From a bacterium (GTDB lineage Bacteria; RBG-13-61-14; DATKZS01): a stretch of 64,000 bases of DNA. Shown here one piece after another: positions 2,935-55,224 of the stretch (positions are counted from its first letter, which is position 1; the number at the start of each line of letters is the position of its first letter). The notes below the pieces were generated by a model that was not told the DNA's origin, made no database searches, and saw only the letters and a program-made list of their open reading frames with translations. A program made the translations under genes and the position numbers. Location of the stretch: assembly GCA_963674965.2 (NCBI GenBank), contig CAXXFL010000006.1, forward strand, positions 192,001 to 256,000, given 5' to 3'.

Positions 2935-5900
2935 ATGAAAAACGAAACCATAATCGACGAGCGCGACCGCCGCCTGCTTTTCGGGGAGGTCGCCCTATCT
3001 CTTCGGCTGGTGACGGCCGATGAGCTTGAGAGGGCCAGAAGCGCCTTCTCCCGTGACCCCTCCCTTTCCCTCGAGGGAATGATCTGCGGTGAGGGCGAGG
3101 CCGGGGTGGAGCGCCGGGCGCTCATCGAGAAACTGGTGGATTGGAAAATTCAGGACAGCGGCAACGACGCCTCGGCGGCCCTGTCCGCCTTTGTTTCCTC
3201 CGGCGGCTCCTACGCGACGGCGCTGGTGAGAGGCTCGTTGGACGCCACGGCCCGGACCATCGACGCGGTGAACGGCACCTTGCCCCTTGACGGGGACGAG
3301 GCGGTTTTCGCCGACTCGGGCGATCGGAACAAGCGGCCGGGCCTGGTGGTGGACCCGGAGACGAGATACACCATCAAGAGCGAGCAAGGCAGGGGCCAGA
3401 TCGGCGTGGTCTCTCTGGCGGTGGACGAGCACATCGGCCGGGAGGTGGCCCTTAAGGAACTCCTGGTCTATAACGACGACTTTGACGGCGGCCCGAAGAA
3501 ACCGAGCATACGTGCCATGGACCGCTTTTTGCGCGAGGCCCGGATCACGGCGCAGCTCAATCATCCCTCCATCGTTCCCGTCTACGATATAGCCAACCGC
3601 TCCGGCGGGGCGCCCTATTACACCATGAGGCTGGTGAGGGGCAAGACCATGGGCGACACCCTCTCGGGCTACAAGGACATTTCCGAGAGGCTCCAGATGC
3701 TGCCCGCGTTCCTGGACATCTGCTACGCCATGGCCTACGCCCACTCGCAAGGAGTTATACATCGGGACCTCAAGCCCGACAACGTGCTCATCGGCAAGTA
3801 CGGAGAAACCGTCGTGCTCGACTGGGGACTGGCCAAGGCAAGGGGCGTGGCGGACATAAGCTCGGGCAAGATCGAGGTGGACGAGAAGATCCTGGGCTCG
3901 GGCGGGATATTCGCCACCGTGGCGGGACATCCTCTCGGCACTCCCTGCTACATGAGCCCCGAGCAGGCACAGGGCCGCATCGACGACGTCAATGAAAGGA
4001 GCGACGTCTGGAGCCTGGGCGCCATACTATACGAGCTTCTTACCGGCCGGCCGCCCTTTTTAGGCGGCAACGCCTTCGAGGTCATCAAGAAGGTCATTCG
4101 GGACCCACTGCGTCCCATCGAGGAATTATGCCCCGAGGCCCCGCCCGAGCTTCAGGCCATAGCCGGGAAGTGCCTGGAAAAAGACCCGCTCCTTCGCTAC
4201 GCCAACGCGGGAGAGGTGGCGGACGACGTGGCCGAGGTGGTCCAGGTCCTGTTCGGCCCCATGTCCTTCATCCAGGTGCGGGAGGAGAAGAACCAGGCCA
4301 TCGAGGCGCGCCGCGTGGCCGAGGAACAAAGGAAGATCGCGGAGGAACAGCGGGAACTGGCCCAGGCCAGGGAACTGATCGCTCGCAAGGCCCTGGCCGA
4401 GGCCTATTACCAGTACGGCCTCCGGGCGGAGCAGAGAAAAAGATGGAACGACGCCCGCGTGTATTTCGCCAAGGCCATGTTTTTCGACGGCCGGGAGGAA
4501 GCCAGGTCCGGGCTGGCCCGCGAGGCGGCGAGGCCCATGAGGTTTTTCAACCGCGTCTCGATCAAGGCCCATGAAGACGAGGTGACGGCGGCGCGTTTCT
4601 CCGGCGACGGTAAGCTACTGGCCACGGGCGGCAAGGATAAGACGGCCAAGATATGGCGGGTGAAGGACGGAAGTCCCACCGGCGTCGAGATGAAGCACGA
4701 CGACTGGGTCAACGACCTGGACTTCTCGCCGGACGCAAAGCGCGTAATAACCTGCTCCTCCGAGGCCATCTTCCTGTGGAACGCCCAGACCGGGGAGATG
4801 ATACGCCGGATATCCGGACACGAGAGCGAGGTGAGCGGCGTGAGGTTCACGCCCGACGGCCAAAAGGCCCTCTCCAGCAGCCTCGACCTGACTCTCAAGC
4901 TTTGGGACCTCGATTCGGGCGAGTGTCTTTTTACCATGTCCGGCCACGAGGACATGGTTACCTGCCTGGACATATCCTCCGACTCGAGCCTGGCCGCCTC
5001 GGGCGGATGGGACAAGAGCGTCAGGATATGGTCCCTTAAAACCGGCGCGCTCGAGAACGTCCTGGCCGGGCACGGCGACGAGGTCAACTCCGTCGCCTTC
5101 GACGGGCAGGGAAAGACCCTGGTCTCGGCCGGCGCCGACGGCGCGATCCTGGTATGGGACCTGACCAGGGATTTCCCACCTCCAGCCGAGCTGCCGGGGG
5201 ACTCGGAGATTAAAGCCGTCTCGGTCGGCCCCGGCGGGACCATACTGGCGGCCGAGTCGTCGGGATGGATCGGGGTCTGGCCGGGGGGCGGGGGGGAAAA
5301 GCTTTGCGCTCTTCGCGGCCACTCGGGCGGGGTCGAGGCCCTTCATTTCAGCGGGGACGGGAAACTTGCCGTCTCGGCGGGGGCCGACGGAGCCGCCCGC
5401 CTCTGGGAGATCGTCCGCTCCAACGCGGTCACCGAGTATCGGGACCGTGCCGGCGAGATATCCGCGGCGGCTTTCTCGCCCGACGGCAAAGCCGTGGCCT
5501 CGAGCGGGCAGGACCGCAAGATTCGCGTGCATTTTCTCGGCCGGGAGCGGAAAGACCTTACCCTTTCCGGACACGAGGCCCCGGTTTCATCCCTGTCCTT
5601 CTCGCCCCGGGGCGACCTTCTGGCCTCGGGAAGCTGGGACGACTCGGCCCGACTATGGTCGCTGAGCGACGGCCAATGCGTCGCCGTTTGCGAGGGACAT
5701 GAGGGCGGCGGGGTCATGCTGGCCGAGTTCAAGGACGGCGGCGAGAAACTTCTGACCGTGAGCTACGACAACCTGGTCAAGTTGTGGTCCTCGAGCGACG
5801 GCTCCGCCCTCAAGACCTACCGGACCCGGACGCGCGAGATATCCTCCGCCCGCTATTGTGAGGCCCGCGACGTTTTACTGGTGGGAAGCTGCGCCCGCAA

Positions 5901-6423
5901 GGAGGGCTTAAGGTGCCTGGCGGGCGAGACTTCCCTCCATGCCCTGGCGCACGACGAGCCGATGGGCGCCTTTGCCGGCCACGCCGACGCGGTAAGGTGC
6001 GTGGCCGTCTCGGCGGATGGAAAGCGCGCGATCACGGGCGGCGGAGATTCCCTTCTGGTCTGGGACGGCGAGACGGGCCGGACCCTTCGCGAGCTTCGGG
6101 GACACAAGGCGACGCTCCGGGCGGTGGACGCGTCCGCCGACGGGAGTAGGGCCGTTTCCGGTGACGACGACGGCGCCATAAAGCTGTGGGACCTGGAGAC
6201 CGGGGCCTGTCTTCTCACCTTCGCCGGCCACGAGGGACCGGTGCTGTCGGTCCGGTTCGCGCCGGACGGAAAAAGCTTCGTCTCGGGCTCGAAGGACAAG
6301 ACCACCCGGGTCTGGCGAATCCCGGAGGACCTGCTGGATAAAGAGGGAGAAGATATTTTCGAGACGGCCGGCCTCGAGACGGGCATGGTCCTGGACGGCT
6401 TTTTCCTTGCGCCGCGGAAGTAG
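2935..6423 (+). CDS. Hanks-type Ser/Thr protein kinase with C-terminal WD40 repeats
   Basis: VALKE, RFLREARITAQLNHPSIV, HRDLKPDN, DWGLAK, YMSPEQ, SDVWSLG; coiled-coil linker; many GH...WD/WR repeats, enough for about two beta-propellers. Confidence 0.95.
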   Translation: MKNETIIDERDRRLLFGEVALSLRLVTADELERARSAFSRDPSLSLEGMICGEGEAGVERRALIEKLVDWKIQDSGNDASAALSAFVSSGGSYATALVRGSLDATARTIDAVNGTLPLDGDEAVFADSGDRNKRPGLVVDPETRYTIKSEQGRGQIGVVSLAVDEHIGREVALKELLVYNDDFDGGPKKPSIRAMDRFLREARITAQLNHPSIVPVYDIANRSGGAPYYTMRLVRGKTMGDTLSGYKDISERLQMLPAFLDICYAMAYAHSQGVIHRDLKPDNVLIGKYGETVVLDWGLAKARGVADISSGKIEVDEKILGSGGIFATVAGHPLGTPCYMSPEQAQGRIDDVNERSDVWSLGAILYELLTGRPPFLGGNAFEVIKKVIRDPLRPIEELCPEAPPELQAIAGKCLEKDPLLRYANAGEVADDVAEVVQVLFGPMSFIQVREEKNQAIEARRVAEEQRKIAEEQRELAQARELIARKALAEAYYQYGLRAEQRKRWNDARVYFAKAMFFDGREEARSGLAREAARPMRFFNRVSIKAHEDEVTAARFSGDGKLLATGGKDKTAKIWRVKDGSPTGVEMKHDDWVNDLDFSPDAKRVITCSSEAIFLWNAQTGEMIRRISGHESEVSGVRFTPDGQKALSSSLDLTLKLWDLDSGECLFTMSGHEDMVTCLDISSDSSLAASGGWDKSVRIWSLKTGALENVLAGHGDEVNSVAFDGQGKTLVSAGADGAILVWDLTRDFPPPAELPGDSEIKAVSVGPGGTILAAESSGWIGVWPGGGGEKLCALRGHSGGVEALHFSGDGKLAVSAGADGAARLWEIVRSNAVTEYRDRAGEISAAAFSPDGKAVASSGQDRKIRVHFLGRERKDLTLSGHEAPVSSLSFSPRGDLLASGSWDDSARLWSLSDGQCVAVCEGHEGGGVMLAEFKDGGEKLLTVSYDNLVKLWSSSDGSALKTYRTRTREISSARYCEARDVLLVGSCARKEGLRCLAGETSLHALAHDEPMGAFAGHADAVRCVAVSADGKRAITGGGDSLLVWDGETGRTLRELRGHKATLRAVDASADGSRAVSGDDDGAIKLWDLETGACLLTFAGHEGPVLSVRFAPDGKSFVSGSKDKTTRVWRIPEDLLDKEGEDIFETAGLETGMVLDGFFLAPRK

Positions 6424-6431
6424 GCCCCCAC

Positions 6432-8594
6432 TTATCCCGTGACCCGAATGACCTCCTCGAGCGAGGTTATCCCCATGGACGCCTTGGTCAGGCCGTCGCG
6501 GCGGAGCGTGGACATTTCCAGGCTCTCGATGGCGTAGTTCCGCAGGTCGTCCACCCCGGCCCCGCCGATGATCATCTTGCGGATGACCGGGTCCATGACC
6601 AGAATCTCCATGGCCCCGGCCCGTCCCTTATACCCGGTCCCGTTGCATCTCTCGCACCCGACGGGTTCCCAGAACTCGGACCCCGCCTCCGGCTGGAAGC
6701 CGTACTTTTGCAGTTTTTCCTCGTCGATCTCGGCCGGCTTTTTACAGAAGGTGCAGAGCTTTCGAAGGAGTCTTTGCGCCTGCACCATCTCGAGGGCGGA
6801 GGCCACGAGGAAGGAGTCGATGCCCATGTCCACCAGCCTGACGATGGTGGAGGGCGAGTCGTTGGTGTGCAGGGTCGAGAGCACCAGGTGGCCGGTAAGG
6901 GCGGCCTTGATGGCGATGTCGGCGGTTTCGAGGTCCCTGATTTCTCCCACCATGACGATGTCGGGGTCCTGCCTCAATATCGAGCGCAGGGCCGCGGGAA
7001 AGGTGAGGCCCGCGTCCACGTTAACCTGCACCTGGGTAATGCGGTGGAGCTCGTTCTCGATGGGGTCCTCGACGGTGATGATGTTCTTGTTCGGCTCGTT
7101 CAGCGCCTGGAGGGCTGAGTACAGGGTGGTGGTCTTGCCCGAGCCGGTGGGACCGGTGACGAGCAGTATTCCGTATGGTTTTCGGATGCTTTCCTCGAAG
7201 AGCCGCAGGGAGGCGCCCATCAGTCCCAGCGACTCGAAGTCCAGGGACATGGCGCTGTTGTCGACAATCCTGATCACCACTTTCTCGCCGTAGCGGGAAG
7301 GCAAGGTGGAGACACGGAGGTCCACGGTGCGTCCCTTGAAGGTGATCCGTATTCTTCCGTCCTGGGGTATTCTCCTGTTGGCGATATCGAGTTCCGCCAT
7401 GATCTTGAATCGGGAAACGACGGCGGCGGCCATGTTCTTGGGGACGGGGTCCATCTCGTTGAGCATGCCGTCGATCCGGTATCTGATTCCCAGGCAGTGC
7501 CGGCGCGGCTCGACGTGGAGGTCCGAGGCCCCCATGGCCACGGCCCTGGCCAGTATCTCGTTGGCCTTTTTGACCACTGGCGGCTCGTCCGCCCCCTCGG
7601 CCAGGACGCGCTCGTCAAGGTGGTCATCCGTCTCGGCCCGGACGGTCTTGAGCTCGGCCGCGGCCTGGAGGTCGGCCTTATCGGCCGCGGGGGCCTTCCG
7701 GATCAGGGTGACCTCGTCCTCGGACTTGTCGCCGAAAAGAGGAACGATGTTTTCGGGCTCGGTCACCACCACCCTGAACTCCCGGCCCTGCTCGGAAAAG
7801 CGGTTGAGCGCGTCGGTAAGCTGGAGGTCGAAGGGGTTGGAGAGGGCAAAGGAAGTGTCGTGGGCCGCGTCGCAAAGCGCCACCACCAGGTTCGACCGGC
7901 AAAAGCGGGTGGGCAACACGCCCAGCTTGACGTCCTTGGGATTGACGTAGGACAAATAGGGGAGCTTTTTGAAGTCGGCCAGAAGCTGGGCCGCGGCGGA
8001 GGTCTTAACCTCCAGCTCCCGGCAAACGTCGTAAAGACGCCTGGGAGCTGCGGCCTCGAGCTTCTTCCTGCCCTCCCCCTCCAGGCCCATCTGGGCCGCG
8101 AGAAAGGCCTTGAACTGGCCGAAGTCCCGCGCCCCGCCCGGGCGCTCCGGCGCGGCCTCGGGGACTTCATCCTTCACCCCGAGCTCCTCCCACTGGCTGC
8201 TGGTGCTGAGGTGGGACTTGATCTTCTCGAGAAGGTTGTCCTTTTTAATGGGTTTGACCAGGTAGTCGGCCGCGCCCACGGCGAAGGCCTTGGCCTTGTC
8301 CCGCTCCTCGCCCAGGGCCGTGGCGAAGATGACGGGTATATAGGCCGCCTCGTCGTTTTCCTGTATCTTGGCGCAGACCTCGTAGCCGGTCATGCCCGGC
8401 ATCATGACGTCGAGGAGGATAAGGTCCGGCTTGATGGTCTTCAGTTTTTCAAGTGCCTCCTCGCCGCTTGCCGCGAACTCGACGCCGTAGCCGCCCTTTT
8501 TAAGGTAGAGCTCGATGATCTTCTGAATCCGTTTATCGTCGTCAACCGACAGCACCAGGGGCTTTCGGTCCTTATCCGCCGTATTCTCGGACAT
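6432..8594 (-). CDS. PilB/GspE-family secretion ATPase with N-terminal receiver (REC) domain
   Basis: N-terminal REC (VDDD, LILLDVMMP, YLVKP); ASDLHVEP, IRYRIDG, Walker A GPTGSGKTT, Asp box TVEDPIE, Walker B DIVMVGEIRD, His box GHLVLSTLH, Zn motif CTFC...CERC. Confidence 0.93.
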   Translation of the reverse strand: MSENTADKDRKPLVLSVDDDKRIQKIIELYLKKGGYGVEFAASGEEALEKLKTIKPDLILLDVMMPGMTGYEVCAKIQENDEAAYIPVIFATALGEERDKAKAFAVGAADYLVKPIKKDNLLEKIKSHLSTSSQWEELGVKDEVPEAAPERPGGARDFGQFKAFLAAQMGLEGEGRKKLEAAAPRRLYDVCRELEVKTSAAAQLLADFKKLPYLSYVNPKDVKLGVLPTRFCRSNLVVALCDAAHDTSFALSNPFDLQLTDALNRFSEQGREFRVVVTEPENIVPLFGDKSEDEVTLIRKAPAADKADLQAAAELKTVRAETDDHLDERVLAEGADEPPVVKKANEILARAVAMGASDLHVEPRRHCLGIRYRIDGMLNEMDPVPKNMAAAVVSRFKIMAELDIANRRIPQDGRIRITFKGRTVDLRVSTLPSRYGEKVVIRIVDNSAMSLDFESLGLMGASLRLFEESIRKPYGILLVTGPTGSGKTTTLYSALQALNEPNKNIITVEDPIENELHRITQVQVNVDAGLTFPAALRSILRQDPDIVMVGEIRDLETADIAIKAALTGHLVLSTLHTNDSPSTIVRLVDMGIDSFLVASALEMVQAQRLLRKLCTFCKKPAEIDEEKLQKYGFQPEAGSEFWEPVGCERCNGTGYKGRAGAMEILVMDPVIRKMIIGGAGVDDLRNYAIESLEMSTLRRDGLTKASMGITSLEEVIRVTG

Positions 8595-8625
8595 GGGTCC
8601 TCCTTGCTTTGGGTCCCAAAGGGCT

Positions 8626-8931
8626 TTATTCGTACGCTATCTCCACCCGGGCCAGGTAATCCTCGAGGCGGGCGACCAGGGCCGCCACTCCGTCGATGGA
8701 GCCGGTCTTGGCCAGGTTCTCGATCTTGGCCCCGATCTCGGAAATCTCGTCGAAGCCGTAGCCGCCACCGCTTCCCTTCAGGGAGTGGCCTATGGAGCGG
8801 GCCTTTCCCGCGTCTCCCGCTTCCACCGCCGCCTTGAGGCCTTCCACGTCGGCCAAGGTCATCTCCATGAAATCCGGTATCAGTTCCTCCAGGTCGGCGT
8901 CGACTATCACCTTGATTTTTTCTTCAGCCAT
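8626..8931 (-). CDS. Stand-alone Hpt (histidine phosphotransfer) protein
   Basis: GHSLKGSGGGYG Hpt motif; start uncertain (8931 MAEEK or 8943; ORF track starts at 8964). Confidence 0.88.
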   Translation of the reverse strand: MAEEKIKVIVDADLEELIPDFMEMTLADVEGLKAAVEAGDAGKARSIGHSLKGSGGGYGFDEISEIGAKIENLAKTGSIDGVAALVARLEDYLARVEIAYE

Positions 8932-8991
8932 TTCCTCTTCCATCCTCTCTCGATTTTTGCACAATCCCCCCTGGAACTCATTCTGGGCGAA

Positions 8992-10599
8992 TTACTCCAG
9001 GGCGAATTCCTCCAGGGCCTTCATCAAGCGGTCCTTTTTTATCGGCTTGGTCAAGTGTCCGTTGCAACCCGCGTCGAGGCTCTGGCGAAAGTGCTCGCCC
9101 ATAGCGTGGGCGGTTAAGGCGACGATGGGCGTGGACTTTTTATCGTTTTCCGCCTCCCATTGTCTGATGGTTTTGGTGGCGGTCAGTCCATCCATGACCG
9201 GCATCTGGATATCCATGAGGACGAGGTCGAAGCTCGAGGCCTTGAACTTGTCCACGGCGGCCTGGCCGTCCTCCGCCTCCTCCAGGGTATGGGCGGTCTT
9301 TTTCAGAAAGGCCTTGATCAGCATCCGGTTCTGGGGGGTGTCGTCCACGAGCAGGATGTGAAGCGGCCTCTCCTTGGGGCCGCTTCCCGCGGGGGAAGGC
9401 GGCGCGGCTTTTTCCGACGGCCCGGGAGAGGCGGCCTCGGCGGCCGGCCCCGCTTCTTCCTCACTCTTGGCGGCCACTTTCAATAGGGGCGTAAAGATGA
9501 AGCTCGATCCCTGGCCCACCTCGCTCTCGACCCAAATCCTTCCGCCCATGAGCTCGGCCAGTCTCTTGCAGATGGCCAGTCCCAGTCCAGTGCCCCCGTA
9601 CTTCCTGGTGGTCGAGGAGTCGGCCTGGCTGAATTTATCGAAGATGGCTTCCAGCCTGTCCGCCGGAATCCCGATGCCCGTGTCGGTCACGCTGATACGG
9701 AGGGCGCCGTCATCCTCCCTCTCCGGGTCCCTGGCGATGGAGACGGTTATGCCTCCCTTCTCGGTGAACTTGACCGCGTTTCCCACCAGGTTGATGATGA
9801 TCTGTCTGAGCCTGGTCGGGTCTCCCATGACTTTAGCGGGAAGTCCCTCGGCCATCTCGCATTTGAGGTCCAGGTTTTTTTCCTGGACCCTGACGTCCAT
9901 AATCCGGCAGGTCTTGTTGGCCAGGTCGGCCAGGTCGAACTCGATCTCCTCGAGCTCGAGGTGTCCGGCCTCGATTTTCGAGAGGTCCAAAACGTCGTTA
10001 ATAAGGGCCAGTAGCGTCTCGCCCGCGGACTTGAGCACGTTGGCGAACTCGCGCTGCTCGTCGTCGAGCCCGGTTTCCATGAGGAGCTCGCTCATTCCGA
10101 TGATGGCGTTCATGGGGGTCCGAATCTCGTGGCTCATGCTGGCCAGGAACTCGCTTTTGGCGTTCGAGGCGGCCAGGGCCTGCTCCCTAGCCCTGGAGAG
10201 GTCCTCTTGAAGCCTCTTGAGCTGCATCTGGGTCCGGGTCCGGGCCATGGCGATCTGGAAGTCCACCGGCTTGGTGACGTAGTCGTTGGCCCCAACTTGC
10301 AGGGCCTTGACCAGGTCGTCGGTCTCTCCCTTGGCCGTGACCATGATCACGGGCAGTTCCATGAGCGAGTAATCCTTGCGCAGGGTCTCGAGCACCTCGA
10401 TGCCGTCGATGCCCGGCATCATGACGTCGAGGAGGACCACGTCGTACTTTTCCGGCGCGATCATGTCGAGGGCCTCTTGACCGTCGACGGCTATGTCCAC
10501 CTCGTAGCCTCTTCTCTTGAAGCGGCGCGAGAGCATGTCGCGGTTCATCTCATTATCGTCGACGATGAGGATGTGGCCCTCTTCCTTGTCCCAGCTCAT
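8992..10599 (-). CDS. Cytoplasmic hybrid histidine kinase REC-HisKA-HATPase-REC
   Basis: N-terminal REC ([13 protein letters not shown]); H-box [38 protein letters not shown]-terminal REC ([14 protein letters not shown]). Confidence 0.95.
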
Positions 10600-10600
10600 G

Positions 10601-10966
10601 TCAGTCTTCCAGGAATTCCCGCATTTTGGACATGAGCCTCTTGAAATCCACGGGCTTGGTGTCGTAGTCGTCGGCCCCGGCCTGGAGGGCCCTTTCGCGG
10701 TCCCCGGCCATGGCGTGGGCGGTAAGGGCGATGATGGGGATGGAACTGGTGGTCTCGTCGGCCTTGATCCTTTTGGTGGCCTCCCATCCGTCTATCTCGG
10801 GAAGGCTGAGGTCCATAAGGATCAGGTCCGGCTTTTCCGAGCCGGCCTTCTCGATGCCCTCCCTGCCGTCCGCGGCGCAGACCACCTCAAAGTTCTTACG
10901 GGTCAGGCGCCTCGAGAGCATGTCCCGGTTCATTTCATTGTCTTCAACGATAAGGATTTTTGTCAT
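10601..10966 (-). CDS. Single-domain response regulator (DivK/CheY-like)
   Basis: 121 aa; [30 protein letters not shown]. Confidence 0.93.
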
Positions 10967-10988
10967 GAGCTATACCTCCAGGTTGACG

Positions 10989-13109
10989 TCACTTAAGATG
11001 GGCGTAATCCCTTACCATTGCCTTCACTTCCCGCAGGAGATCATCCCGGCTGTAGGCCCCCTTCTGGATGATCTTCTTGACCCGGCCGTTCAAGAGGTCC
11101 CGCTCGTCGCCGGTGAGTTCCTTGGCCGTCACCACTATCACCGGTATCTCCTGCCAGCCGCGGTTTTTACGGAGTTCCTCCAGGAACTTGAAGCCGTCCA
11201 TCACCGGCATCATCAGGTCAAGAAGGATTACGTCGGGCGCGTCCTTTTCGATGAGCTCGAGCGCGACCTGGCCGTTCTCGGCCGTGTCAACGTCCCACCC
11301 GGCCTTCTCGATCATCCGGGCCATCATCTCGGCGGTGTCCTTGTCGTCCTCCACCACCAGGGCGAAGCCCTCCATGCCCGCCTTCTTGTACTTGGCCAGG
11401 TTGGCCAGCAGCCTTTCCTTGTCAACGGGCTTGACCATGTAGTCGGCCGCCCCCAGGGTGAAGCCCAGGTTCTGGTCGTCGATGATGGTCACCATGATGA
11501 CCGGGATGTCGGCTATCTCGGGGTCGGACTTGATGATCCGAAGGGCGGCCCAGCCGTCCATTTTCGGCATCATCACGTCCAGGGTGATGACCGTGGGCTT
11601 TATCTTTTTCGCCAGCTCGATGCCGCGCTCCGCGCCGCCCGCCGTGACCACCTCGAAGCCGTCCTTGGTAAGGTGTCTCTTCATGATGTCGTGAATGATG
11701 GGGTCGTCGTCTATGACCAGAACGACGTTTTCCCCCCTCGTCACGGGTTCCCTCTCGACCAGCACGGGCCGGGCCGGCTGGGCGGTCTTGCCCGCCTCGG
11801 CGTCGGCCTCCATGCGGGCCGGTATCTTCACGGTAAAGGTCGTGCCCTTGCCCTCCTCGCTCTCGACGTAAATGTCTCCTCCCATCATCTCGCAGAAGCG
11901 CTTGGTGATGGTCAGGCCCAGGCCGGTGCCGCCGAACTTCTTGGTGGTGGAGGCGTCGGCCTGAGTAAAGGGCTCGAATATCTTTTTCACCTGTTCTTCC
12001 GTCATGCCGATGCCGGTGTCGGTCACGCCAAGATAGGCCCATTCGACCTTGTCGTCCGACTCTTTCTTGACCTTCAAGGTGATCTTGCCGTTCTCGGTGA
12101 ACTTGGCCGCGTTGCTGATAAGGTTGAAAAGTACCTGCCTGACGCGGGTCATGTCCGCGGTTATGGTCCCCAGATCGTCGGGGCATTCCAGCGCCATCTC
12201 GTTGTAATTTTTCTCGACCAGGGGATGGGCCGTGGCCACGACCTCCTTGACCAGCTTGGGCAGGTCGAACTCCTCGATGAGCATCTCCATCCTGCCCGCC
12301 TCGATCTTGGAAAGGTCCAGGATGTCGTTTATTAGCGAGAGAAGGTGTTTTCCCGCGGCGTTGATCTTTTGCAGGTCGGGGATAAAGTCGTCCAGATCGA
12401 GGTCCTCGGCCTCCTCCTCGAGCATCTCGGAGTAGCCGATAATAGCGTTAAGGGGGGTCCTGAGCTCGTGGCTCATGTTGGCCAGAAAGGTGCTCTTGGC
12501 GCGGTTGGCGTTCTCGGCGGCGCGCATGGCGGCCTTGATTTCCTGTTCCGCCTTTTTACGCTGGGTGATGTCGATGGCGGCGCAAAGGAACCCGGTCACG
12601 GCCTTGCCCGCGCCGTAAAGGGCGGTGACGGAGAGGGAAACGGGAAACCTGGTCCCGTCCTTTTTGACGTAGGTCCATTCCCTTTCCTCGGCCATTTTCT
12701 GGCGGGCGTACTCGAGCAGGAGCTCGGGACCCTTGATCGGTTTGCCCACCCTCTCGCTCATCTCCCGGCATCTTTCCTCCAACTCCAGCCCGTGATGGAA
12801 ATCGGAGGGACGCTTGCCGTTCATGGCCTCCTCGGCGGAATAGCCCAGCATCCTTTCCGCCCCCCGGTTGAAGACCATGATTTTTCCGCTCGCGTCGGCG
12901 GCGATGATGGAAATCCTGGAGGCCGCGTTAAGCACGGCCTCCTGGAGCGCGCTCGACTCCTGAATCCTTTCCAGAAGGGTGACCGTTTCCTGGAACTGGT
13001 TGGTCACCAGGTCGGCCGTGATCTCGGCCGATTCCCGGGCCACTCTCACCTCGTTCCTTAGGACGGCGTTCTCCTCGACAAGTTGCTCCAAGTTCAAATG
13101 GCTGATCAT
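10989..13109 (-). CDS. Cytoplasmic PAS hybrid histidine kinase with two receiver domains, coupled to the hydrogenase genes
   Basis: N-terminal coiled coil, PAS/PAC (FNRGAERMLGYS...KKDGTRFPV), H-box FLANMSHELRTPLN, NLISNAAKFT, FGGTGLGL, two intact REC domains; 4-nt overlap with the upstream protease gene; no TM segment. Confidence 0.95.
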   Translation of the reverse strand: MISHLNLEQLVEENAVLRNEVRVARESAEITADLVTNQFQETVTLLERIQESSALQEAVLNAASRISIIAADASGKIMVFNRGAERMLGYSAEEAMNGKRPSDFHHGLELEERCREMSERVGKPIKGPELLLEYARQKMAEEREWTYVKKDGTRFPVSLSVTALYGAGKAVTGFLCAAIDITQRKKAEQEIKAAMRAAENANRAKSTFLANMSHELRTPLNAIIGYSEMLEEEAEDLDLDDFIPDLQKINAAGKHLLSLINDILDLSKIEAGRMEMLIEEFDLPKLVKEVVATAHPLVEKNYNEMALECPDDLGTITADMTRVRQVLFNLISNAAKFTENGKITLKVKKESDDKVEWAYLGVTDTGIGMTEEQVKKIFEPFTQADASTTKKFGGTGLGLTITKRFCEMMGGDIYVESEEGKGTTFTVKIPARMEADAEAGKTAQPARPVLVEREPVTRGENVVLVIDDDPIIHDIMKRHLTKDGFEVVTAGGAERGIELAKKIKPTVITLDVMMPKMDGWAALRIIKSDPEIADIPVIMVTIIDDQNLGFTLGAADYMVKPVDKERLLANLAKYKKAGMEGFALVVEDDKDTAEMMARMIEKAGWDVDTAENGQVALELIEKDAPDVILLDLMMPVMDGFKFLEELRKNRGWQEIPVIVVTAKELTGDERDLLNGRVKKIIQKGAYSRDDLLREVKAMVRDYAHLK

Positions 13110-13573
13110 CTTGGTCCCACCTCGACGTGTTTTTGGTTTGGTTTCTTCACGATCCCGCTCACGGCGGCCGCCAGGGCCGACCGTGCCAGGGACCTGGCCT
13201 TGTCCTGGTCGGCCGGTCCCTCCAGCCCGACCAGGACCAGCTCGGGCAAAGGTCCGTCCACCACCCGGGGAAGAACTTTCAACAAATAGGCCAGTCCGCC
13301 CCCGTGTCCATAGGCGGCGTCCACTCCGCCCGCGGCGGCCAGGGCGTCCATGACCACTTGCCCGCCCTCATCCGTAAAGCCCTTGACCGAGTCGACGAAC
13401 ACGACGCGGTCCGCGCTCTCGACCATGGGAAGAAGGTCGATGCCCGCCAGTCCGCCCTCGATCACCTCGACGCCGGGGGGGATTTCCATCCCGGCCAGGG
13501 CCTCGAGGGCCAAGGGACCGGCCGAGTCTTCCTGGGCGTAGCGGTTGCCCACGCATATAACGCGAGAGATCAT
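13106..13573 (-). CDS. Hydrogenase maturation endopeptidase (HyaD/HybD-like)
   Basis: GNRYAQEDSAG, IEGG, VVFVDS, YGH motifs; ATGA overlap with the large subunit gene. Confidence 0.88.
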   Translation of the reverse strand: MISRVICVGNRYAQEDSAGPLALEALAGMEIPPGVEVIEGGLAGIDLLPMVESADRVVFVDSVKGFTDEGGQVVMDALAAAGGVDAAYGHGGGLAYLLKVLPRVVDGPLPELVLVGLEGPADQDKARSLARSALAAAVSGIVKKPNQKHVEVGPR

Positions 13574-15105
13574 AGGATCATCTTGCCCCTGGTTTTTCCC
13601 CTCTCCAGGGTATGCACGCAGCAGACCATGCAGGAGTCGAAGGACCTGATGACGTGTCCCACCTCGACGGGGTTGTCCACGTCCTTCACGCTCGCGCCGA
13701 TAAGGCTTTCCTCCCAGGGGCCCCGGACTTCGCCCTCGTCGCGGGGAGAGGCGTTCCAGGCCGTGGGAGTAATGATCTGGTAATGGCTGATTTGCCCGTC
13801 ACTGATTTTCACCCAGTGGCCGAGGGCCCCCCGCGCCGCCTCCACCAGCCCGAACCCCTGTCCGTCGGATATCTTGCCGGGATGAGAGTAAAAACCCTCG
13901 CCGTCGGTCTTGACCTCCGCGAGCCAGGCGTCGACGGCCGGTATTAAAAGAGAGGGCCTCACCAGCCGGGCCAGCTCGCGGGCGAACACGCTGGGGCCTT
14001 CCTTTTTGATTATGTCCGAGAAAAGAGGGTTTTCCGCGATCACGGCCTCGGCCAGGGGACCGGTCTCGGCGGGCCGGCCCTCGTAGCGGGGGGCCTTTGC
14101 CCAGGAGTACCTTTGCCCCTCGTGGCCCGAGGCATAGGGCTTGGTGTCCTCGTCAAAGGGGTGGTTGGCCTTCAGGGCTTCCTCGAACCAGGAATGGGTC
14201 ACGTCCTCGGTGACCTTGGACTGGTCGAACCAGCCGGGCCGGCTTCCCTCCGAGTAGCCCGCGGGAATAAAGGACGTGCCCTTGCCCATGGCCGCCACCG
14301 AGGTGTTGCGGGGCATCTCGAGACCGCCGAAGCTGATATAGTTGTTGTGGCCCCGGCCGATCTCGCTTAGTCCGGCCTCACGACAAAAGCGGATGAAAAA
14401 GCCCAGGTCCCCGTTCTTATGTTCCTCTTTCTCCTCGAGCCAGGCCGAAAGGTCGGCTAGACTTCGGACCTCGGACCACCGCTCGATCGTGCATCCCAGG
14501 ACCGAGCGCTCGAAATATTTGCGGAACCCCCGGAGGACGGAGCGGCACTGCAGCAGGTCTCCGGCGTTGGGCAGGGATACGATGCCGCCGGGGACCATGA
14601 AGGAGGTGTGGGGCCATTGTCCTCCTAATATGGCGATGATCTCGAGGAGCTTTTTCGATTCCTTGATGGCCTCGATCACCTTGGTCCCTTTAAAAGGCGC
14701 ATACTTGGCGACGGCCTCCTGGAAAAGGGAGAGCTTCTCGTAGGACTGGTTGGTGAAGTCGGCGAAGAACATAAGGATGCCATGCCTTATGTCGCTTTGC
14801 ATGTCCTCGCACATGAGGGCCACGTTCCGGACGCGGGTGGCGTTGTCCGGCGGCTGTATGCCCGCTATCATCTCGAGGGCCTGGGCCGCGGCGGTCAGGT
14901 GGCAGACGTTGCACAGTCCGCAGATTCGGGGCGTTATCACCAAGCCGTCCAGGGCCCCTCGTCCCTTCAGTATCTGCTCGAAGCCCCTGAACATGGTGCC
15001 CGAACTCCAGGAGTTCGTGACTATTCCGTCGGTTATTTCAACCTTTATTTCAAGGTCTCCCTCCACCCGGTTGAGCGGTATGGAACGTATGGTTTTGCTT
15101 GCCAT
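13570..15105 (-). CDS. [NiFe]-hydrogenase large subunit, group 2 type (putative sensory)
   Basis: NRVEGDL, MFRGFE, L1 motif TPRICGLCNVCHL, YSWAKAPRY, EAARGALGHW, PTAWN, L2 motif RSFDSCMVCCVH followed by a 13-aa extension. Confidence 0.95.
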   Translation of the reverse strand: MASKTIRSIPLNRVEGDLEIKVEITDGIVTNSWSSGTMFRGFEQILKGRGALDGLVITPRICGLCNVCHLTAAAQALEMIAGIQPPDNATRVRNVALMCEDMQSDIRHGILMFFADFTNQSYEKLSLFQEAVAKYAPFKGTKVIEAIKESKKLLEIIAILGGQWPHTSFMVPGGIVSLPNAGDLLQCRSVLRGFRKYFERSVLGCTIERWSEVRSLADLSAWLEEKEEHKNGDLGFFIRFCREAGLSEIGRGHNNYISFGGLEMPRNTSVAAMGKGTSFIPAGYSEGSRPGWFDQSKVTEDVTHSWFEEALKANHPFDEDTKPYASGHEGQRYSWAKAPRYEGRPAETGPLAEAVIAENPLFSDIIKKEGPSVFARELARLVRPSLLIPAVDAWLAEVKTDGEGFYSHPGKISDGQGFGLVEAARGALGHWVKISDGQISHYQIITPTAWNASPRDEGEVRGPWEESLIGASVKDVDNPVEVGHVIRSFDSCMVCCVHTLERGKTRGKMIL

Positions 15106-15135
15106 TTGTATCTCCTTTGGCGGGACTTGGCGGGC

Positions 15136-16074
15136 CTAGATTTTCGTTTTGCGCTTTTTGAGTCTTTCCGGCGAGGCCGCGGCGGCCATGCTTTTGTAGG
15201 CCATGTAATGAGCGCGGTTCAGGCCCTCCGGAAGCTCGATGGGTATGCCCTCGATGTTGCGGGTCTCGAAGAACGGATAGGACTGGGGGAAGTCAGGGTT
15301 GGTGCAGCCGAAGCAGGGCACGCCCACCCGGGTCTTGCTCGAGCGGCGGTTCCACAGGAACTTGTTGCAGGGACCGTGGGCCAATGGGCCGTGGCATCCC
15401 ATATAGAAAAACAGGCAGCCCTTTTCGCCGAAGATTTTCTCCTCGATGCGATACTCGTGGTATTCGTTCCTGGTGCATCCCTGATGGACCATCATGCCGT
15501 ACCATTGCTCGGGGCGGTTGTACTCGTCAAGATCGAGCTTGACCCCGTTGGCCAGGGCGGTCAATGTTCCTCTGACCGCCTCGGGATGGACCGGACATCC
15601 GGGAAGGTTTATTACCGGTAGCCCGGCGGCGGAAACGAAATCGGAGCCCAGAAAACCTCCCTTTTCCTTTTTCAAAAACTGAAGGCCCGTGGCCTCGATC
15701 TCGCCGTCGGCCCCCACTCCTCCAAAAGCGGCGCAAGTGCCCATGGCGATTATAAATTTTGCTTTGTGACACAAGGCCGAAATCAAGTCCTTTTTCGGAC
15801 GGCCCTCGACGGTGTCGAACATTCCCGTGCCTCCGGGGCCACGGATTACCGATCCCTCCATCACCAGGATATCAAGGGGCGTTTCGCCGGAGATGATCTT
15901 CTCGTTCTGGCGGCGGTACTCCCGGATATTCTGCGGCGAGAGAGAAGGGTGCCATATCACCTGGACGTCCAACTCCTCCAAAAGCTCGGGAAGGTCGGGA
16001 GATTCCATGTTCAGGACCGACATGGAGTCGCCGTCGCACCCTCCTCCTACTATACAGTAAAGACTTAAAGACAT
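15136..16074 (-). CDS. [NiFe]-hydrogenase small subunit, cytoplasmic (no Tat signal, no TM anchor)
   Basis: GGCDGDSMS, WHPSLS, GTCAAFGG, NLPGCPVHP, HQGCTRNEY, GCLFFYMGCHGP, SSKTRVGVPCFGC. Confidence 0.93.
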   Translation of the reverse strand: MSLSLYCIVGGGCDGDSMSVLNMESPDLPELLEELDVQVIWHPSLSPQNIREYRRQNEKIISGETPLDILVMEGSVIRGPGGTGMFDTVEGRPKKDLISALCHKAKFIIAMGTCAAFGGVGADGEIEATGLQFLKKEKGGFLGSDFVSAAGLPVINLPGCPVHPEAVRGTLTALANGVKLDLDEYNRPEQWYGMMVHQGCTRNEYHEYRIEEKIFGEKGCLFFYMGCHGPLAHGPCNKFLWNRRSSKTRVGVPCFGCTNPDFPQSYPFFETRNIEGIPIELPEGLNRAHYMAYKSMAAAASPERLKKRKTKI

Positions 16075-16177
16075 TCGCTTTCCTCCGTGAAAGGGACGGA
16101 TTATTTAAAGCGTGGGTAAGAAAGTAATAGAAAGGACAAAAGGCATTTATAAACCTACGCTTTGATACAGGATAAGG

Positions 16178-16206
16178 AAGTTAGCACATGAAAATGCAAA
16201 ATTCAA
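16178..16206 (-). promoter_or_regulatory. Putative sigma70 promoter of the hydrogenase-signalling operon
   Basis: Minus strand TTGAAT-N17-TAACTT with an extended -10 TG, in the AT-rich gap about 100 nt upstream of the small subunit start. Confidence 0.45.
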
Positions 16207-16230
16207 TCCAAATTTTCTAAAGCAAACGAC

Positions 16231-17241
16231 CTAACAAACGCGAGGCAGAAGGCGTCCGGAGGGCATGTCCAGGACCCTTGTTCCCCCCACTTTGGTACGC
16301 AATACCACCATGCCGGCGGGGGAGTCTTTTACCGTTCCGATTATGGCGGCGTTCTTGCCAAGTTCCGCTGAACGCATGGCCGCCAGGGCGTCATGGGCTT
16401 TCTCCTTTTTAACGAAGGCCACCAGTTTTCCCTCGCAGGCCAGAAAGAACGGGTCCAGGCCCAAAAGTTCGCAAAGCCCCGCGACTTCCTTTTTTATGGG
16501 GACCGAGGCTTCCTCGATCTCGACGCTCGTTCCCGATTGCGTCGCGATCTCGTTCAAGGTCGCCGCCAGTCCTCCCCGCGTGGGATCGCGGAAACAGGCC
16601 GCAGCCCCGGGGCACGCGGCCAGGACGCCCTGAACAAGGCCGCCGAGAGGAGCGCAGTCGCTTTTGAGATCAGTCGCCTTGGTAAGATTTTCCCTGGCGT
16701 TCAAGATGGCGATCTCGTGATCGCCCACCGTCCCACTAACCAGGACCGCCATGCCCGGCTTTGCCCTGGACCCGGAAAGCTCGATCCCCTCCTCGATTAT
16801 CCCCACTCCGCTCGTGGTGATATATATCTCGTCCACGGCGCCTTTCTCGGCCACCTTGGTGTCGCCCGTTACCACCTCGACCCCCGCGTCATTGGCCGTC
16901 TTTGCGATCGAGCGGCATATCTTTTCCAGGACCTCGATCTCGAGTCCCTCCTCGAGGAGAAAGGAGACGCTTAACCAGCGAGGCTTCGCCCCCACCATGG
17001 CCAGGTCGTTGGCCGTGCCGCAGACGGCGAGCTTTCCGAGGTCTCCGCCCGGGAAAAAGATTGGCTTCACCATGAAGGAGTCGGTCGAGAAAGCCAGACG
17101 GCCGGACTCGACCCGGATCACGGCCGAGTCGTCGCTCGATCCCCTCGCCCTGGGCGCGAAGCTGCCTCCAAATACCTCGCGGATAAGGGCGTGCATCTCG
17201 AGCCCTCCCGCGCCGTGTCCCAGTCCTATTTTATTCTTCAC
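16231..17241 (-). CDS. hypE: Hydrogenase maturation carbamoyl dehydratase HypE
   Basis: GTG start overlapping the hypD stop (GTGA); LGHGAGG, FSTDSFMVKPIFFPGGDLGKLAVCGTAND, GDTKV, RDPTRGG, C-terminal LPRVC. Confidence 0.95.
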   Translation of the reverse strand: MKNKIGLGHGAGGLEMHALIREVFGGSFAPRARGSSDDSAVIRVESGRLAFSTDSFMVKPIFFPGGDLGKLAVCGTANDLAMVGAKPRWLSVSFLLEEGLEIEVLEKICRSIAKTANDAGVEVVTGDTKVAEKGAVDEIYITTSGVGIIEEGIELSGSRAKPGMAVLVSGTVGDHEIAILNARENLTKATDLKSDCAPLGGLVQGVLAACPGAAACFRDPTRGGLAATLNEIATQSGTSVEIEEASVPIKKEVAGLCELLGLDPFFLACEGKLVAFVKKEKAHDALAAMRSAELGKNAAIIGTVKDSPAGMVVLRTKVGGTRVLDMPSGRLLPRVC

Positions 17242-18317
17242 CTCTTCACTTCCCCGTATTTGTAATAGGCCCGGCAGGACCCTTCCGATGAAACCATGCA
17301 AGGACCGACGGGACCGACGGGAGAGCAGGCCTTGCCGAAGAGGGGGCAATCGGGAGGATCGATCAGGCCGCGCAGGACGTCGGCGCACCGGCAGCCGGGC
17401 GCGTCCCGGCCCTCGCTTTGAAATTCCACCTTTATCAAGGAGGCGTCCCGTTTTTGGAACGCTGGACGAAAGCCGAGGCCGCTGTCCGGTATCTCGCCCA
17501 GCCCCCGCCACAAAGAGGAAACCGGCTCGAAAACCTGGTCGCGCGTCCGTATAGCCATCGGGTTTCCCTCTTGCCTGACCACGCCGCCGTACTCGTTCTC
17601 GATTCTCGCCACGCCCCTCGCGGCCAGCTCGATAACCCGAGCGAGGGCCCTCAATATGGCTCGCGCCTCGAAGCCGGCCACCACGCCCGCGAGACCGAAC
17701 TCCCGGGCGAGGAAGAAGAAAGGCTCGAGGCCGGTCACTGCGCTCACGTGTCCGGGCAAGAGGAACCCGTTTATGTTGGCCCCCCCGTCCTGGAGCAGAG
17801 CCCTCATGGCCGGGGCGATCAGCTTCATGGCGGGAAGGACCATGAAGTTGCCGATACCCCGCTTCTCCGCCTCGATGACGGCGGCGGCGATGGCGGGCTG
17901 AGTGGTCTCGAAGCCCACGCCGAAGAAAACGACCTTCTTGTCCGGATTTTCCAAAGCGACTTTCAGGCAGTCCCTCGGCGAGTAGACCACCTTGACTTTC
18001 GCGCCCATGGCGCCGGCTTTCTCGAGGCTCAGCCTGGAGCCCGGCACCCTGATCATGTCGCCGAAGGTGCAAAGGATAAGGTCGGGCAAGAGGGCCAGGG
18101 CGATGGCCATGTCCACCGTCTCGACGGGTGTGACGCAGACCGGGCACCCCGGTCCCGAGGCCAGGCGCAGCTTCGCGGGAAGGATCGACCTTATCCCTTC
18201 CCGGGCGATGGCCATGGTATGGGTACCGCATACCTCCATGACGGTGAGAGAGCGTCCGGCCAGGGCCGTCCCGATCTTTTCCCGCCATCCCTCGCCCTTT
18301 GGACCGCTATTATTCAC
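17238..18317 (-). CDS. hypD: Hydrogenase maturation protein HypD
   Basis: MEVCGTH, SGPGCPVCVT, GFETT, PGHVS, GPCMVSSEGSC motifs. Confidence 0.97.
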   Translation of the reverse strand: MNNSGPKGEGWREKIGTALAGRSLTVMEVCGTHTMAIAREGIRSILPAKLRLASGPGCPVCVTPVETVDMAIALALLPDLILCTFGDMIRVPGSRLSLEKAGAMGAKVKVVYSPRDCLKVALENPDKKVVFFGVGFETTQPAIAAAVIEAEKRGIGNFMVLPAMKLIAPAMRALLQDGGANINGFLLPGHVSAVTGLEPFFFLAREFGLAGVVAGFEARAILRALARVIELAARGVARIENEYGGVVRQEGNPMAIRTRDQVFEPVSSLWRGLGEIPDSGLGFRPAFQKRDASLIKVEFQSEGRDAPGCRCADVLRGLIDPPDCPLFGKACSPVGPVGPCMVSSEGSCRAYYKYGEVKR

Positions 18318-18531
18318 CCGCGTCCATCTCCCGGAAAAGCTCGAGCGATCTTTTGGCCTCCTCGGGGTCTATCACCTGGATCACGTAGCCCGCGTGAACC
18401 AGCACCCAGTCGCCCACCCCGGCGTCGGGCGTAAGGTCCAGGGCCACCTCCTTGGTCAGGCCGGACCAGGAGGCGACTCCCAGATTCTCTTCCCCTATCT
18501 CAACCAACTGGGCCGGTATGGCCAGACACAT
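18310..18531 (-). CDS. hypC: Hydrogenase chaperone HypC
   Basis: MCLAIPA N-terminus; VGDWVLVHAG. Confidence 0.97.
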   Translation of the reverse strand: MCLAIPAQLVEIGEENLGVASWSGLTKEVALDLTPDAGVGDWVLVHAGYVIQVIDPEEAKRSLELFREMDAGE

Positions 18532-19693: not shown

Positions 19694-19754
19694 CTTAATG
19701 GTTTAAGTTTAGTCTCGGGTTATGTCGCGGGCAAACGCGGCATAAAAAAAGGGC

Positions 19755-19783
19755 TTGACTCGCCCGGCCCAATTATGTAACGT
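19755..19783 (+). promoter_or_regulatory. Putative sigma70 promoter upstream of the SDR gene
   Basis: TTGACT-N17-TAACGT. Confidence 0.5.
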
Positions 19784-19866
19784 TTGTTAAATTCACGCGG
19801 CATTGAAGGCCGAAAAAGATACATGAGTGTATAAGCTACTGGGACTCGGACGGCTTTAATAAGGAG

Positions 19867-22714: not shown

Positions 22715-22720
22715 CCTCGC

Positions 22721-55213: not shown

Positions 55214-55224
55214 TCTTTTCTAAA

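Follow-up and report, generated by a model that had tools for sequence, protein, structure and literature searches.

A group 2c-like [NiFe]-hydrogenase encoded with a phosphorelay and a receiver-fused PilB/GspE-family ATPase

An eight-gene cluster of soluble proteins

A 64,000-nucleotide stretch of a genome from the bacterial lineage RBG-13-61-14; DATKZS01 (GenBank assembly GCA_963674965.2, contig CAXXFL010000006.1, positions 192,001–256,000 of the forward strand), hereafter the window, carries eight co-oriented open reading frames (ORFs) on its minus strand between positions 6432 and 16074. The predicted products are all soluble, and they bring together a [NiFe]-hydrogenase (HydS and HydL), a maturation protease, two hybrid histidine kinases (HK1 and HK2), a free receiver (REC), a histidine phosphotransfer protein (Hpt) and a PilB/GspE-type ATPase that carries a receiver of its own (REC-PilB). 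Gene identities come from Pfam and NCBIfam profile searches and are listed from the upstream end of the cluster.

16075–16230, minus strand: A+T-rich gap of 156 nucleotides 5’ of hydS, candidate operon promoter region
15136–16074, minus strand: hydS, 312-amino-acid [NiFe]-hydrogenase small subunit with Oxidored_q6 and NiFe_hyd_SSU_C (Pfam)
13570–15105, minus strand: hydL, 511-amino-acid [NiFe]-hydrogenase large subunit with NiFeSe_Hases PF00374 (Pfam)
13106–13573, minus strand: protease gene, 155-amino-acid HycI/hydrogenase maturation endopeptidase; TIGR00072 at 52.6 bits (cut-off 47.45) and PF01750
10989–13109, minus strand: HK1, 706-amino-acid hybrid kinase, coiled coil-PAS-HisKA-HATPase-REC-REC (Pfam)
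10601–10966, minus strand: REC, 121-amino-acid single-domain receiver; PF00072
8992–10599, minus strand: HK2, 535-amino-acid hybrid kinase, REC-HisKA-HATPase-REC (Pfam)
8626–8964, minus strand: Hpt, 112-amino-acid histidine phosphotransfer protein; PF01627 at 46.6 bits
6432–8594, minus strand: REC-PilB, 720 amino acids, REC-linker-N1 (MshEN-like)-T2SSE; PF00072 at 105.5 bits and PF00437 at 444.8 bits

Successive intergenic distances from hydS to REC-PilB are 30, −4, −4, 22, 1, 27 and 31 nucleotides, with a 4-nucleotide overlap between hydL and the protease gene and a single nucleotide between REC and HK2. Judged from homologues, Hpt probably starts at an ATG at 8943 (105 amino acids), and the gap between HK2 and Hpt is then 48 nucleotides. 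Three promoter-like sites occur within the cluster (1.8 ± 1.4 in shuffled sequences) and 12 terminator-like sites (12.1 ± 2.9 in shuffles), neither being in excess. Because of the close gene spacing alone, the eight genes likely form one operon, for which the gap at 16075–16230 is the probable promoter region; no sigma-70-like site was found in that gap, and no Rfam RNA family was found in 5500–21500 at E values up to 0.1. Pfam searches identify no DNA-binding, GGDEF, EAL, HD-GYP, cytochrome or other electron-transfer domain in the eight proteins, none of which contains a 19-residue hydrophobic window above 1.43 (Kyte-Doolittle), and HydS lacks a twin-arginine motif. An earlier sequence-only reading of the locus had described the same domain order, with 4-nucleotide overlaps or short gaps between co-oriented genes and with no DNA-binding regulator, diguanylate cyclase, membrane anchor or electron-transfer partner in the operon; the measured distances (−4 to 31 nucleotides), the profile searches and the hydrophobicity scan all agree with this description.

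The hydrogenase and its signalling neighbours

HydL contains the metal-binding motifs RICGLCNVCH and DSCMVCCVH and extends 13 residues beyond the latter. Its best solved relative is the Huc large subunit of Mycobacterium smegmatis, at 452.6 bits over the full length (group 1 enzymes reach at most 225.5), and for HydS it is the small subunit of the same enzyme, which scores 290.8 bits (other groups at most 100.7). Alignments of HydS to small-subunit models bearing a twin-arginine translocation (Tat) signal begin at model positions 44–61. The hydrogenase is assigned, on these features, as a cytoplasmic group 2 heterodimer.

Placement within group 2 draws on 80 related loci taken from species-representative genomes and on 2a and 2b references from annotated plasmids. 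A tree of 83 rows (the window, 73 of the 80 relatives, one further relative, three 2a and three 2b references and two group-1-like outgroups) was obtained by a quick IQ-TREE search under LG+G4, with the Shimodaira–Hasegawa-like approximate likelihood ratio test (SH-aLRT) as its only support measure and no curated 2c reference among its rows; the seven loci left out are partial or interrupted. HydL falls in a 74-row clade (SH-aLRT 99) that is sister to the 2a references (96) and apart from the 2b references (100), and this clade contains every relative with a downstream cyclic di-GMP (c-di-GMP) enzyme. Identity to HydL is 50–66% within the clade and 36–38% to plasmid-borne relatives, including two of the plasmid 2b references. 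The L2 consensus of 24 family members, SFDACLVCTVH, equals the group 2c consensus SFDxCLVCTVH quoted in the available part of PMC4853749, and the taxa of the recovered relatives fit the distribution given there, mainly sulfate reducers and methylotrophs. HydL is provisionally described as 2c-like. The earlier claim of a cytoplasmic group 2 [NiFe]-hydrogenase of putatively sensory kind is borne out by the Huc scores and the tree. The large-subunit phylogeny places HydL in group 2, in a diguanylate cyclase-linked clade apart from HupUV-type 2b enzymes, and makes this clade sister to the catalytic 2a enzymes. A homologue of the protease gene lies 3’ of hydL in 37 of the 80 relatives. HycI, HisKA, HATPase and REC segments fall in one ORF in two proteobacterial loci (L058:11511–13823 and L062:2987–6154), representing either a real fusion or an ORF-calling run-on.

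Comparison of the loci links this hydrogenase family to signal transduction. The small subunit gene is upstream of hydL in 75 of the 80 relatives, and a signalling protein is encoded downstream of the hydrogenase in every relative with enough sequence (75 of 75, directly in 74), which supports the sequence-only reading. A PAS segment or kinase-core homologue of HK1 is found just downstream in 67 loci, a PAS-GGDEF-EAL protein takes the place of the kinase in seven, and the kinase lies beyond a 5.8-kb insertion in one; the remaining five have less than 1.4 kb of downstream DNA. Pfam scans of 169 downstream ORFs (229 were listed and two added by hand; protease-sized first ORFs and ORFs of very short loci were left out) identify a c-di-GMP enzyme in 30 of the 80 loci, comprising 19 REC-GGDEF, eight PAS-GGDEF(-EAL) and three HD-GYP-type proteins. 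Outputs in other relatives are a free receiver only, a REC-HATPase protein, a LuxR-type protein or a methyl-accepting chemotaxis protein (MCP). The nearest relative, from an Elusimicrobiota metagenome-assembled genome (L001:1629–10248), encodes a HisKA-REC-adenylate/guanylate cyclase upstream of the hydrogenase and PAS-HK-REC-REC, REC and cyclic mononucleotide (cNMP)-binding proteins downstream of it, which suggests a cyclic-mononucleotide output for that locus.

The N-terminus of HK1 belongs to the same pattern. Its first 190 residues are 45–50% identical (at least 100 bits) to kinases that adjoin hydL in 31 of the 80 loci and otherwise differ from HK1 in architecture, and only 24–27% identical (38 bits) to two HK1-like kinases without a hydrogenase. 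Because this segment is conserved only beside a hydrogenase, its distribution marks the coil-PAS region (residues 1–195) as the predicted hydrogenase-coupled input, and makes it a candidate hydrogenase-docking or sensing module. The hydrogenase itself is, from its gene neighbourhood, a putative hydrogen (H2) sensor. The classical sensor role, switching on an uptake [NiFe] enzyme, is ruled out because the genome contains no other PF00374 gene, hydL encoding its only [NiFe] group 1–3 large subunit.

The phosphorelay and the REC-PilB family

The H-box histidine is present in both kinases (SHELRTP in HK1 and SHEIRTP in HK2), the acidic pocket, Asp, Thr and Lys are present in all six REC domains of the cluster, and Hpt contains HSLKG within GHSLKGSGG, a motif kept in the homologues at loci L123, L124 and L118. 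In the receiver of REC-PilB the conserved residues are D18/D19/D62/T92/K114. The cluster is predicted to encode a His-Asp-His-Asp multi-step phosphorelay with all parts and residues intact, including, as had been proposed, the REC of the ATPase, and phosphotransfer along it is predicted. The sole input domain of HK2 is its N-terminal receiver, which is 48% identical to the free REC, the closest of the 15 pairs among the six receivers; the free REC is also 69% identical to a receiver of the hydrogenase-free relay at locus L152. For the last step, a predicted complex between the REC-PilB receiver (residues 1–135) and Hpt scores 0.58, with the best control at 0.00, agreement of the runs in 100% of contacts and a predicted local distance difference test (pLDDT) value of at least 88 for the partner. 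Of 157 solved complexes, 116 reach the mark used for such predictions, as do 2 of 215 mismatches; at scores of 0.60 or less, only 18 of these solved complexes reach it, together with both mismatches. The predicted complex weakly supports transfer from Hpt to REC-PilB, and it may reflect likeness only, because Hpt-receiver complexes have already been solved.

REC-PilB belongs, by profile and motif content, to the PilB/GspE superfamily of secretion ATPases. Its T2SSE domain matches PF00437 far above the cut-off (444.8 vs 24.9 bits), the motifs GPTGSGKTT (Walker A), VEDPIE, DPDIVMVGEIRD, TGHLVLSTLHTN and CxxC...CxxC occupy conserved alignment columns, and Walker A, Asp box, Walker B, His box and tetra-Cys are all intact. 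The protein scores below both the PilB equivalog cut-off (TIGR02538, 565.7 vs 675.65) and the GspE equivalog cut-off (TIGR02533, 543.5 vs 630.25), and its ATPase part is about equally close (49–51% identity) to the genome's dedicated PilB and to its dedicated GspE. The match to MshEN is weak (29.6 bits, profile positions 11–78). The MshEN motif is given in the available part of PMC7288161 as a tandem RLGxxLLxxGLLxxxxLxxxLxxQ of 24 residues; strict and loose MshEN patterns matched neither REC-PilB nor any of five paralogues in the genome, so that the patterns do not discriminate. A complete type II secretion system (T2SS) cluster with its own GspE and a PilB-PilT-PilC-PilS set are present elsewhere in the genome (contigs C3 and C7), and REC-PilB is one of four orphan PilB/GspE paralogues. 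The three other orphans (C5:560662–563400, C6:16872–18884 and C4:24947–26842) have different N-terminal modules; among them are DUF4388 (with an adjacent MshEN-only protein), about 160 amino acids without an assigned domain, and an orphan with an HDOD-protein neighbour. No PilC/GspF (T2SSF), pilin or secretin gene is present in the window.

The best 120 matches to the first 340 residues of REC-PilB all carry PF00072 and PF00437, and source annotations name the family ‘GspE/PilB-like protein/response regulator’. Most members are about 850 amino acids long and have a second, C-terminal receiver; the short type of about 720 amino acids found in the window accounts for 6 of the 119 other matches listed. 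A metagenome scan with a peptide specific to the nearest REC-PilB subgroup returned nine matches, four of them true homologues and five unrelated DNA. Hpt lies beside or near REC-PilB in three of these four: an HK2-like REC is followed by Hpt and REC-PilB at L123, an Hpt-REC-PilB two-gene unit stands behind housekeeping genes at L124, and Hpt and a CHASE3 hybrid kinase are found beside a convergent REC-PilB at L118. Close HK2 homologues are 59–61% identical, several with a fused Hpt, and nine exact longest-contig sizes are common to the HK2 and REC-PilB homologues (55787, 22666, 26074, 8173, 25878, 37277, 20434, 15150 and 9250 bp). Full-length REC-PilB homologues (42–46% identity) occur in at least six of 401 Planctomycetota genomes, a lower bound with two candidates scored per genome.

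The sensors that accompany these ATPases vary. At locus L152 the gene order is periplasmic binding protein, sensor-PAS-HK-REC-REC kinase (sharing 40% identity with HK1), REC, HisKA-only protein, REC, REC-PilB and Ser/Thr kinase; the Planctomycetota locus L151 (498–6644) has PAS-HK-REC-REC, REC-GGDEF and REC-PilB in overlapping tandem, an arrangement in which the same kinase may supply both a diguanylate cyclase and a receiver-fused ATPase side by side; and at L150 Hpt domains occur both on the ATPase and in its vicinity. No pilus or secretion genes were found among the ORFs scanned beside 10 REC-PilB homologues. Because REC-PilB recurs beside kinases and Hpt with varied sensors, the relay into it is read as a recurrent design with interchangeable sensors, the hydrogenase being one, and the hybrid kinase/Hpt/REC-PilB grouping is a recurring gene neighbourhood outside the window, as had been supposed. 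By gene content the operon is a join of two separately conserved modules, a hydrogenase with a PAS signalling protein and a hybrid kinase/Hpt with REC-PilB.

Proposed mechanism, alternatives and significance

The cluster is tentatively interpreted, at slightly less than an even chance, as a multi-step phosphorelay that responds to H2 and terminates at the fused receiver of a hexameric ATPase of the PilB/GspE family. Maturation of the 2c-like HydSL would depend on HypCDE, on the truncated HypF and on the dedicated protease; the enzyme would react with H2, and its state would be read by the N-terminal coil-PAS segment of HK1. Two closely paralogous receivers, the free REC and the one at the N-terminus of HK2, would be phosphorylated by HK1; HK2, having no other input, would thereby be switched on and would autophosphorylate, and phosphate would pass from its His to its C-terminal REC, to Hpt and to Asp62 of REC-PilB. 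Phosphorylation of Asp62 would alter assembly, activity or docking of the ATPase, which may power a pilus or secretion platform already present in the cell or a different system. With two [FeFe]-hydrogenase genes in the genome, the H2 signal may be produced by the organism itself or come from its surroundings. A stronger version, in which H2 acts through His-Asp-His-Asp transfer to phosphorylate the motor ATPase directly and so switches a surface machine within seconds and without transcription, is unlikely; such a machine would extend pili, mediate attachment to a syntrophic partner or carry out secretion. The sequence-only proposal of an H2 relay to a motor ATPase stands as regards a sensor-like hydrogenase and an intact relay in one tight operon, whereas the join is rare and the pilus or secretion role unsupported.

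The maturation genes invoked here lie upstream of hydS.

About 16231–17230, minus strand: hypE, maturation gene
17238–18317, minus strand: hypD, maturation gene
18334–18531, minus strand: hypC, small gene between hypD and the hypF fragment
18500–19693, minus strand: C-terminal, Kae1-like half of hypF, model positions 388–740 of 741

No full-length hypF was found in the genome, which elsewhere has weak generic acylphosphatase and YrdC-like matches only; a short-chain dehydrogenase/reductase (SDR) gene on the opposite strand (19867–20712) occupies the place expected for the N-terminal half. hypA is on another contig (C2:328548–328883). At C5:332851–339050 two genes resemble those of [FeFe]-hydrogenase large subunits and are separated by about 5 kb, a glycyl-radical enzyme and its activase are encoded at 21806–25699 of the window, and the organism is probably an H2-producing fermenter. 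On the other side of the cluster, a Ser/Thr kinase-WD40 gene (2935–6423, plus strand, 1162 amino acids) is convergent with REC-PilB, with 8 nucleotides between the stop codons. A Ser/Thr kinase gene also follows REC-PilB at L152 (8843–10663), on the same strand there, by coincidence or as a link. Directly upstream of the window's Ser/Thr kinase gene is a further hybrid kinase gene (115–2904, plus strand; Tll0287-like-HAMP-PAS-HisKA-HATPase-REC). Mobile-element remnants lie 22–42 kb from the cluster, namely an IS200-type transposase (38361–38807), a phage-type integrase (55057–56292) and an rve integrase (56871–57887), and a GH94/glucoamylase-domain protein of at least 1764 amino acids (58650–63944, minus strand) extends past the window end.

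Several observations weigh against control of the ATPase by H2. First, to our knowledge there is no demonstrated case of H2 sensing by a group 2c enzyme, and the only systems we know of in which hydrogenase-based H2 sensing is proven are the 2b HupUV/HoxBC systems, which control transcription. The role of group 2c is given as undetermined in HydDB, according to the available text of PMC5037454. The window's own L2 motif, SFDSCMVCCVH, keeps the metal ligands and departs from the 2c consensus at two non-ligand positions. HydL retains a 13-residue C-terminal extension and is accompanied by a protease gene, features of catalytic enzymes that set it apart from proven 2b sensors, and it is on this account predicted to be processed like a catalytic hydrogenase. 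Homology of the HK1 PAS domain to the HoxJ-type PAS was rejected, as only the kinase core aligns, at 23%.

Second, the union of hydrogenase and ATPase is rare. In none of the 80 relatives is a PilB-type ATPase encoded within 10 kb of hydL, and no PilB homologue has a match that reaches into the receiver in any of five hydrogenase-bearing genomes (those of L001 and L042 included, the sister locus's genome among the five). Conversely, no hydrogenase is near any of the six Planctomycetota REC-PilB loci, nor is a close hydL present in the five of those genomes searched (G278 left out). Hydrogenase, HK1 and REC form an apparently complete unit at L001, L007 and L044, and because they stand complete there the relay could stop at the free REC. 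Nor is the cluster common to close kin: it was not found with cluster queries in 12 genomes (four of the same family, six of the same order and two of the same class), hydL being missing from all four same-family genomes and at most 41% identical in the order and class, with no full-length REC-PilB match above 37% identity. On these counts the hydrogenase-to-PilB link is not conserved across this hydrogenase family. The union probably recurs on one metagenomic contig, as judged from equal sizes only: the best homologue of HydL (P0002, 65%), the second-best of HK2 (P0243, 61%) and the best of REC-PilB (P0122, 63%) come from one source, and 55787 bp is the longest contig size recorded for all three. 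The value 9659 bp is likewise common to homologues of HydL (P0037) and HK2 (P0249). Chance coincidences of size for contigs above 20 kb are estimated at well under 0.01 between two lists of 120; a 3028-bp match is attributed to chance because the contig is too short for both genes. The metagenome peptide scan returned neither the 55787-bp nor the 9659-bp contig. A HydL homologue (P0074) and a long-type REC-PilB (P0166), both at 14501 bp, were not used, as their sources differ and no further support was found.

Three alternatives bear on different parts of the proposed relay. The first concerns its end point: it is quite possible, though short of probable, that REC-PilB has no part as a motor in piliation or secretion and is a phosphorylation-gated ATPase with another role, for example as a phosphate sink or scaffold in the relay or as the motor of an unrecognised machine, in which case the output would not be piliation or secretion even if it were controlled by H2. 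The scores below both equivalog cut-offs agree with this, as does the lack of PilC/GspF, pilin and secretin genes in the window or among the ORFs scanned by 10 homologues, and the genome already encodes a GspE within its complete T2SS cluster, a PilB within a PilB-PilT-PilC set and three more orphans. The same facts leave the earlier assignment of the output to type IV pili or type II secretion without support. However, the ATPase motifs and zinc-binding Cys are intact, the ATPase part is as close to the dedicated PilB and GspE as noted above, and alternative ATPases are known to share one platform in type IV pilus systems.

The second alternative breaks the relay in the middle. Two insulated modules would happen to share the operon, HydSL-HK1-REC being a self-sufficient sensor of H2 or redox state with the free receiver as its output, acting on an unlinked target, and HK2-Hpt-REC-PilB being fed by another kinase via the N-terminal receiver of HK2, so that the ATPase would not be under H2 control. 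Each half does occur separately, the hydrogenase with PAS-HK-REC-REC and REC and without PilB at L001, L007 and L044, Hpt-REC-PilB alone behind housekeeping genes at L124, and REC-PilB without a hydrogenase at all six Planctomycetota loci, and PilB is beside hydL in none of the 80 loci. This arrangement is nevertheless distinctly unlikely for the window, in which REC and HK2 are a single nucleotide apart, terminator and promoter sites do not exceed those of shuffles, and the sole input domain of HK2 most resembles the free REC beside HK1. In addition, at L152 REC-PilB stands in one string with a kinase resembling HK1 and an orthologue of REC (69%), and homologues of hydL, HK2 and REC-PilB are probably on one further contig, and those of hydL and HK2 on another.

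Least probable is that the hydrogenase is mainly catalytic, a Huc-related enzyme of H2 uptake or recycling with an unlinked acceptor, next to a kinase that senses something else, such as redox state or a small molecule through its PAS domain, or only tunes hydrogenase expression; although its clade is sister to the catalytic 2a enzymes, it retains the C-terminal extension and dedicated protease, it is the only [NiFe] group 1–3 large subunit in the genome, hyp genes adjoin it and the [FeFe] enzymes would make H2 that a recycling enzyme could use, neither an electron acceptor nor a DUF1641/HucM-like protein, a diaphorase or a membrane subunit is encoded in the operon (a DUF1641 gene is present in two of three 2a reference loci, L112 and L113), the cluster has no DNA-binding regulator to tune expression, a signalling protein follows the hydrogenase throughout the relatives with enough sequence, and the N-terminal segment of the kinase is conserved only beside a hydrogenase.

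An H2-responsive relay into REC-PilB would differ from each of the systems it resembles. In HydDB, group 2c appears as ‘diguanylate cyclase-linked, putative’, a designation of Greening et al. 2016 that is cited in the available parts of PMC4853749 and PMC5037454. The window shares with this group cytoplasmic subunits, a clade with enzymes that have REC-GGDEF, PAS-GGDEF-EAL and REC-HD-GYP genes downstream, a signalling protein directly downstream and a family L2 consensus in agreement with the published one; it differs in its own L2 at two positions, in the absence of a c-di-GMP enzyme from the operon and in a relay that ends on a PilB/GspE-type ATPase. The group 2b systems (HupUV-HupT-HupR and HoxBC-HoxJ-HoxA) are alike in principle, pairing a soluble hydrogenase with an adjacent PAS histidine kinase, and the 2b reference loci (L111, L114 and L115) encode HupU, the large subunit and a kinase, with a sigma-54 activator in two of the three. 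However, the large subunits of these three references end at His (...CTVH), with neither the extension nor the protease that the window has, their clade is separate (support 100), the HK1 PAS domain has no significant similarity to a HoxJ-type kinase, and 2b signalling ends on a sigma-54 (NtrC-type) activator that turns on genes for uptake hydrogenases, a regulator missing from the window cluster. Huc-type 2a enzymes (PDB 7utd/7uus) are the closest solved structures for both subunits and likewise have a C-terminal extension and a protease, but the 2a reference loci carry the small and large subunits, a protease and accessory genes (DUF1641/HucM-type in two of three) and no kinase, and the window lies outside their clade, which is the sister group.

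On the ATPase side, trans-acting regulators such as PATAN-REC proteins acting on PilB1 in Synechocystis, PilG/PilH of the Pseudomonas Pil-Chp system and FrzS/SgmX of Myxococcus bring a phosphorylation signal to a PilB-type motor without transcription, according to partial texts of the sources; unlike these, the window receiver is fused to the ATPase, its predicted donor is an Hpt protein and not of CheA type, and there are no linked pilus genes. MshE/PilB2-type ATPases also carry an N-terminal regulatory module on a GspE/PilB ATPase, gated by c-di-GMP through MshEN (Wang et al. 2016), and MshEN domains are also found with REC domains, as stated in the available part of PMC5013675; the MshEN match of the window protein is weak (29.6 bits). 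The closest parallel is the REC-PilB fusion family, of which the window protein is a member and beside whose members hybrid kinases and Hpt recur, whereas the hydrogenase input is found in the window only, plus probably the one metagenomic contig. Full-text literature searches found no study in which a REC-fused PilB/GspE is the output of a relay or in which a hydrogenase is connected to such an ATPase; the supplementary tables of Wang 2016 and Greening 2016, outside this search, may list such architectures. The earlier statement that no system with this output has been described stands in that respect, but the REC-PilB architecture is common in databases and is mentioned in print, in such parts of the sources as were available.

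If the proposed relay is correct, it would provide the first defined output of a group 2c hydrogenase other than c-di-GMP, and the first defined input and mechanism for a large family of receiver-fused PilB/GspE ATPases. The 2c-like clade is far more widespread than 2b, and at least 120 REC-PilB clusters are among the matches listed. An easily dosed signal, H2, would head a soluble relay ending on REC-PilB, such that both modules could be tested with purified proteins. The operon also indicates that the hydrogenase clade is a portable input module, connected in different bacteria to c-di-GMP enzymes, HD-GYP proteins, a cyclase with a cNMP-binding protein, LuxR-type proteins, MCPs and, in the window, a motor ATPase.

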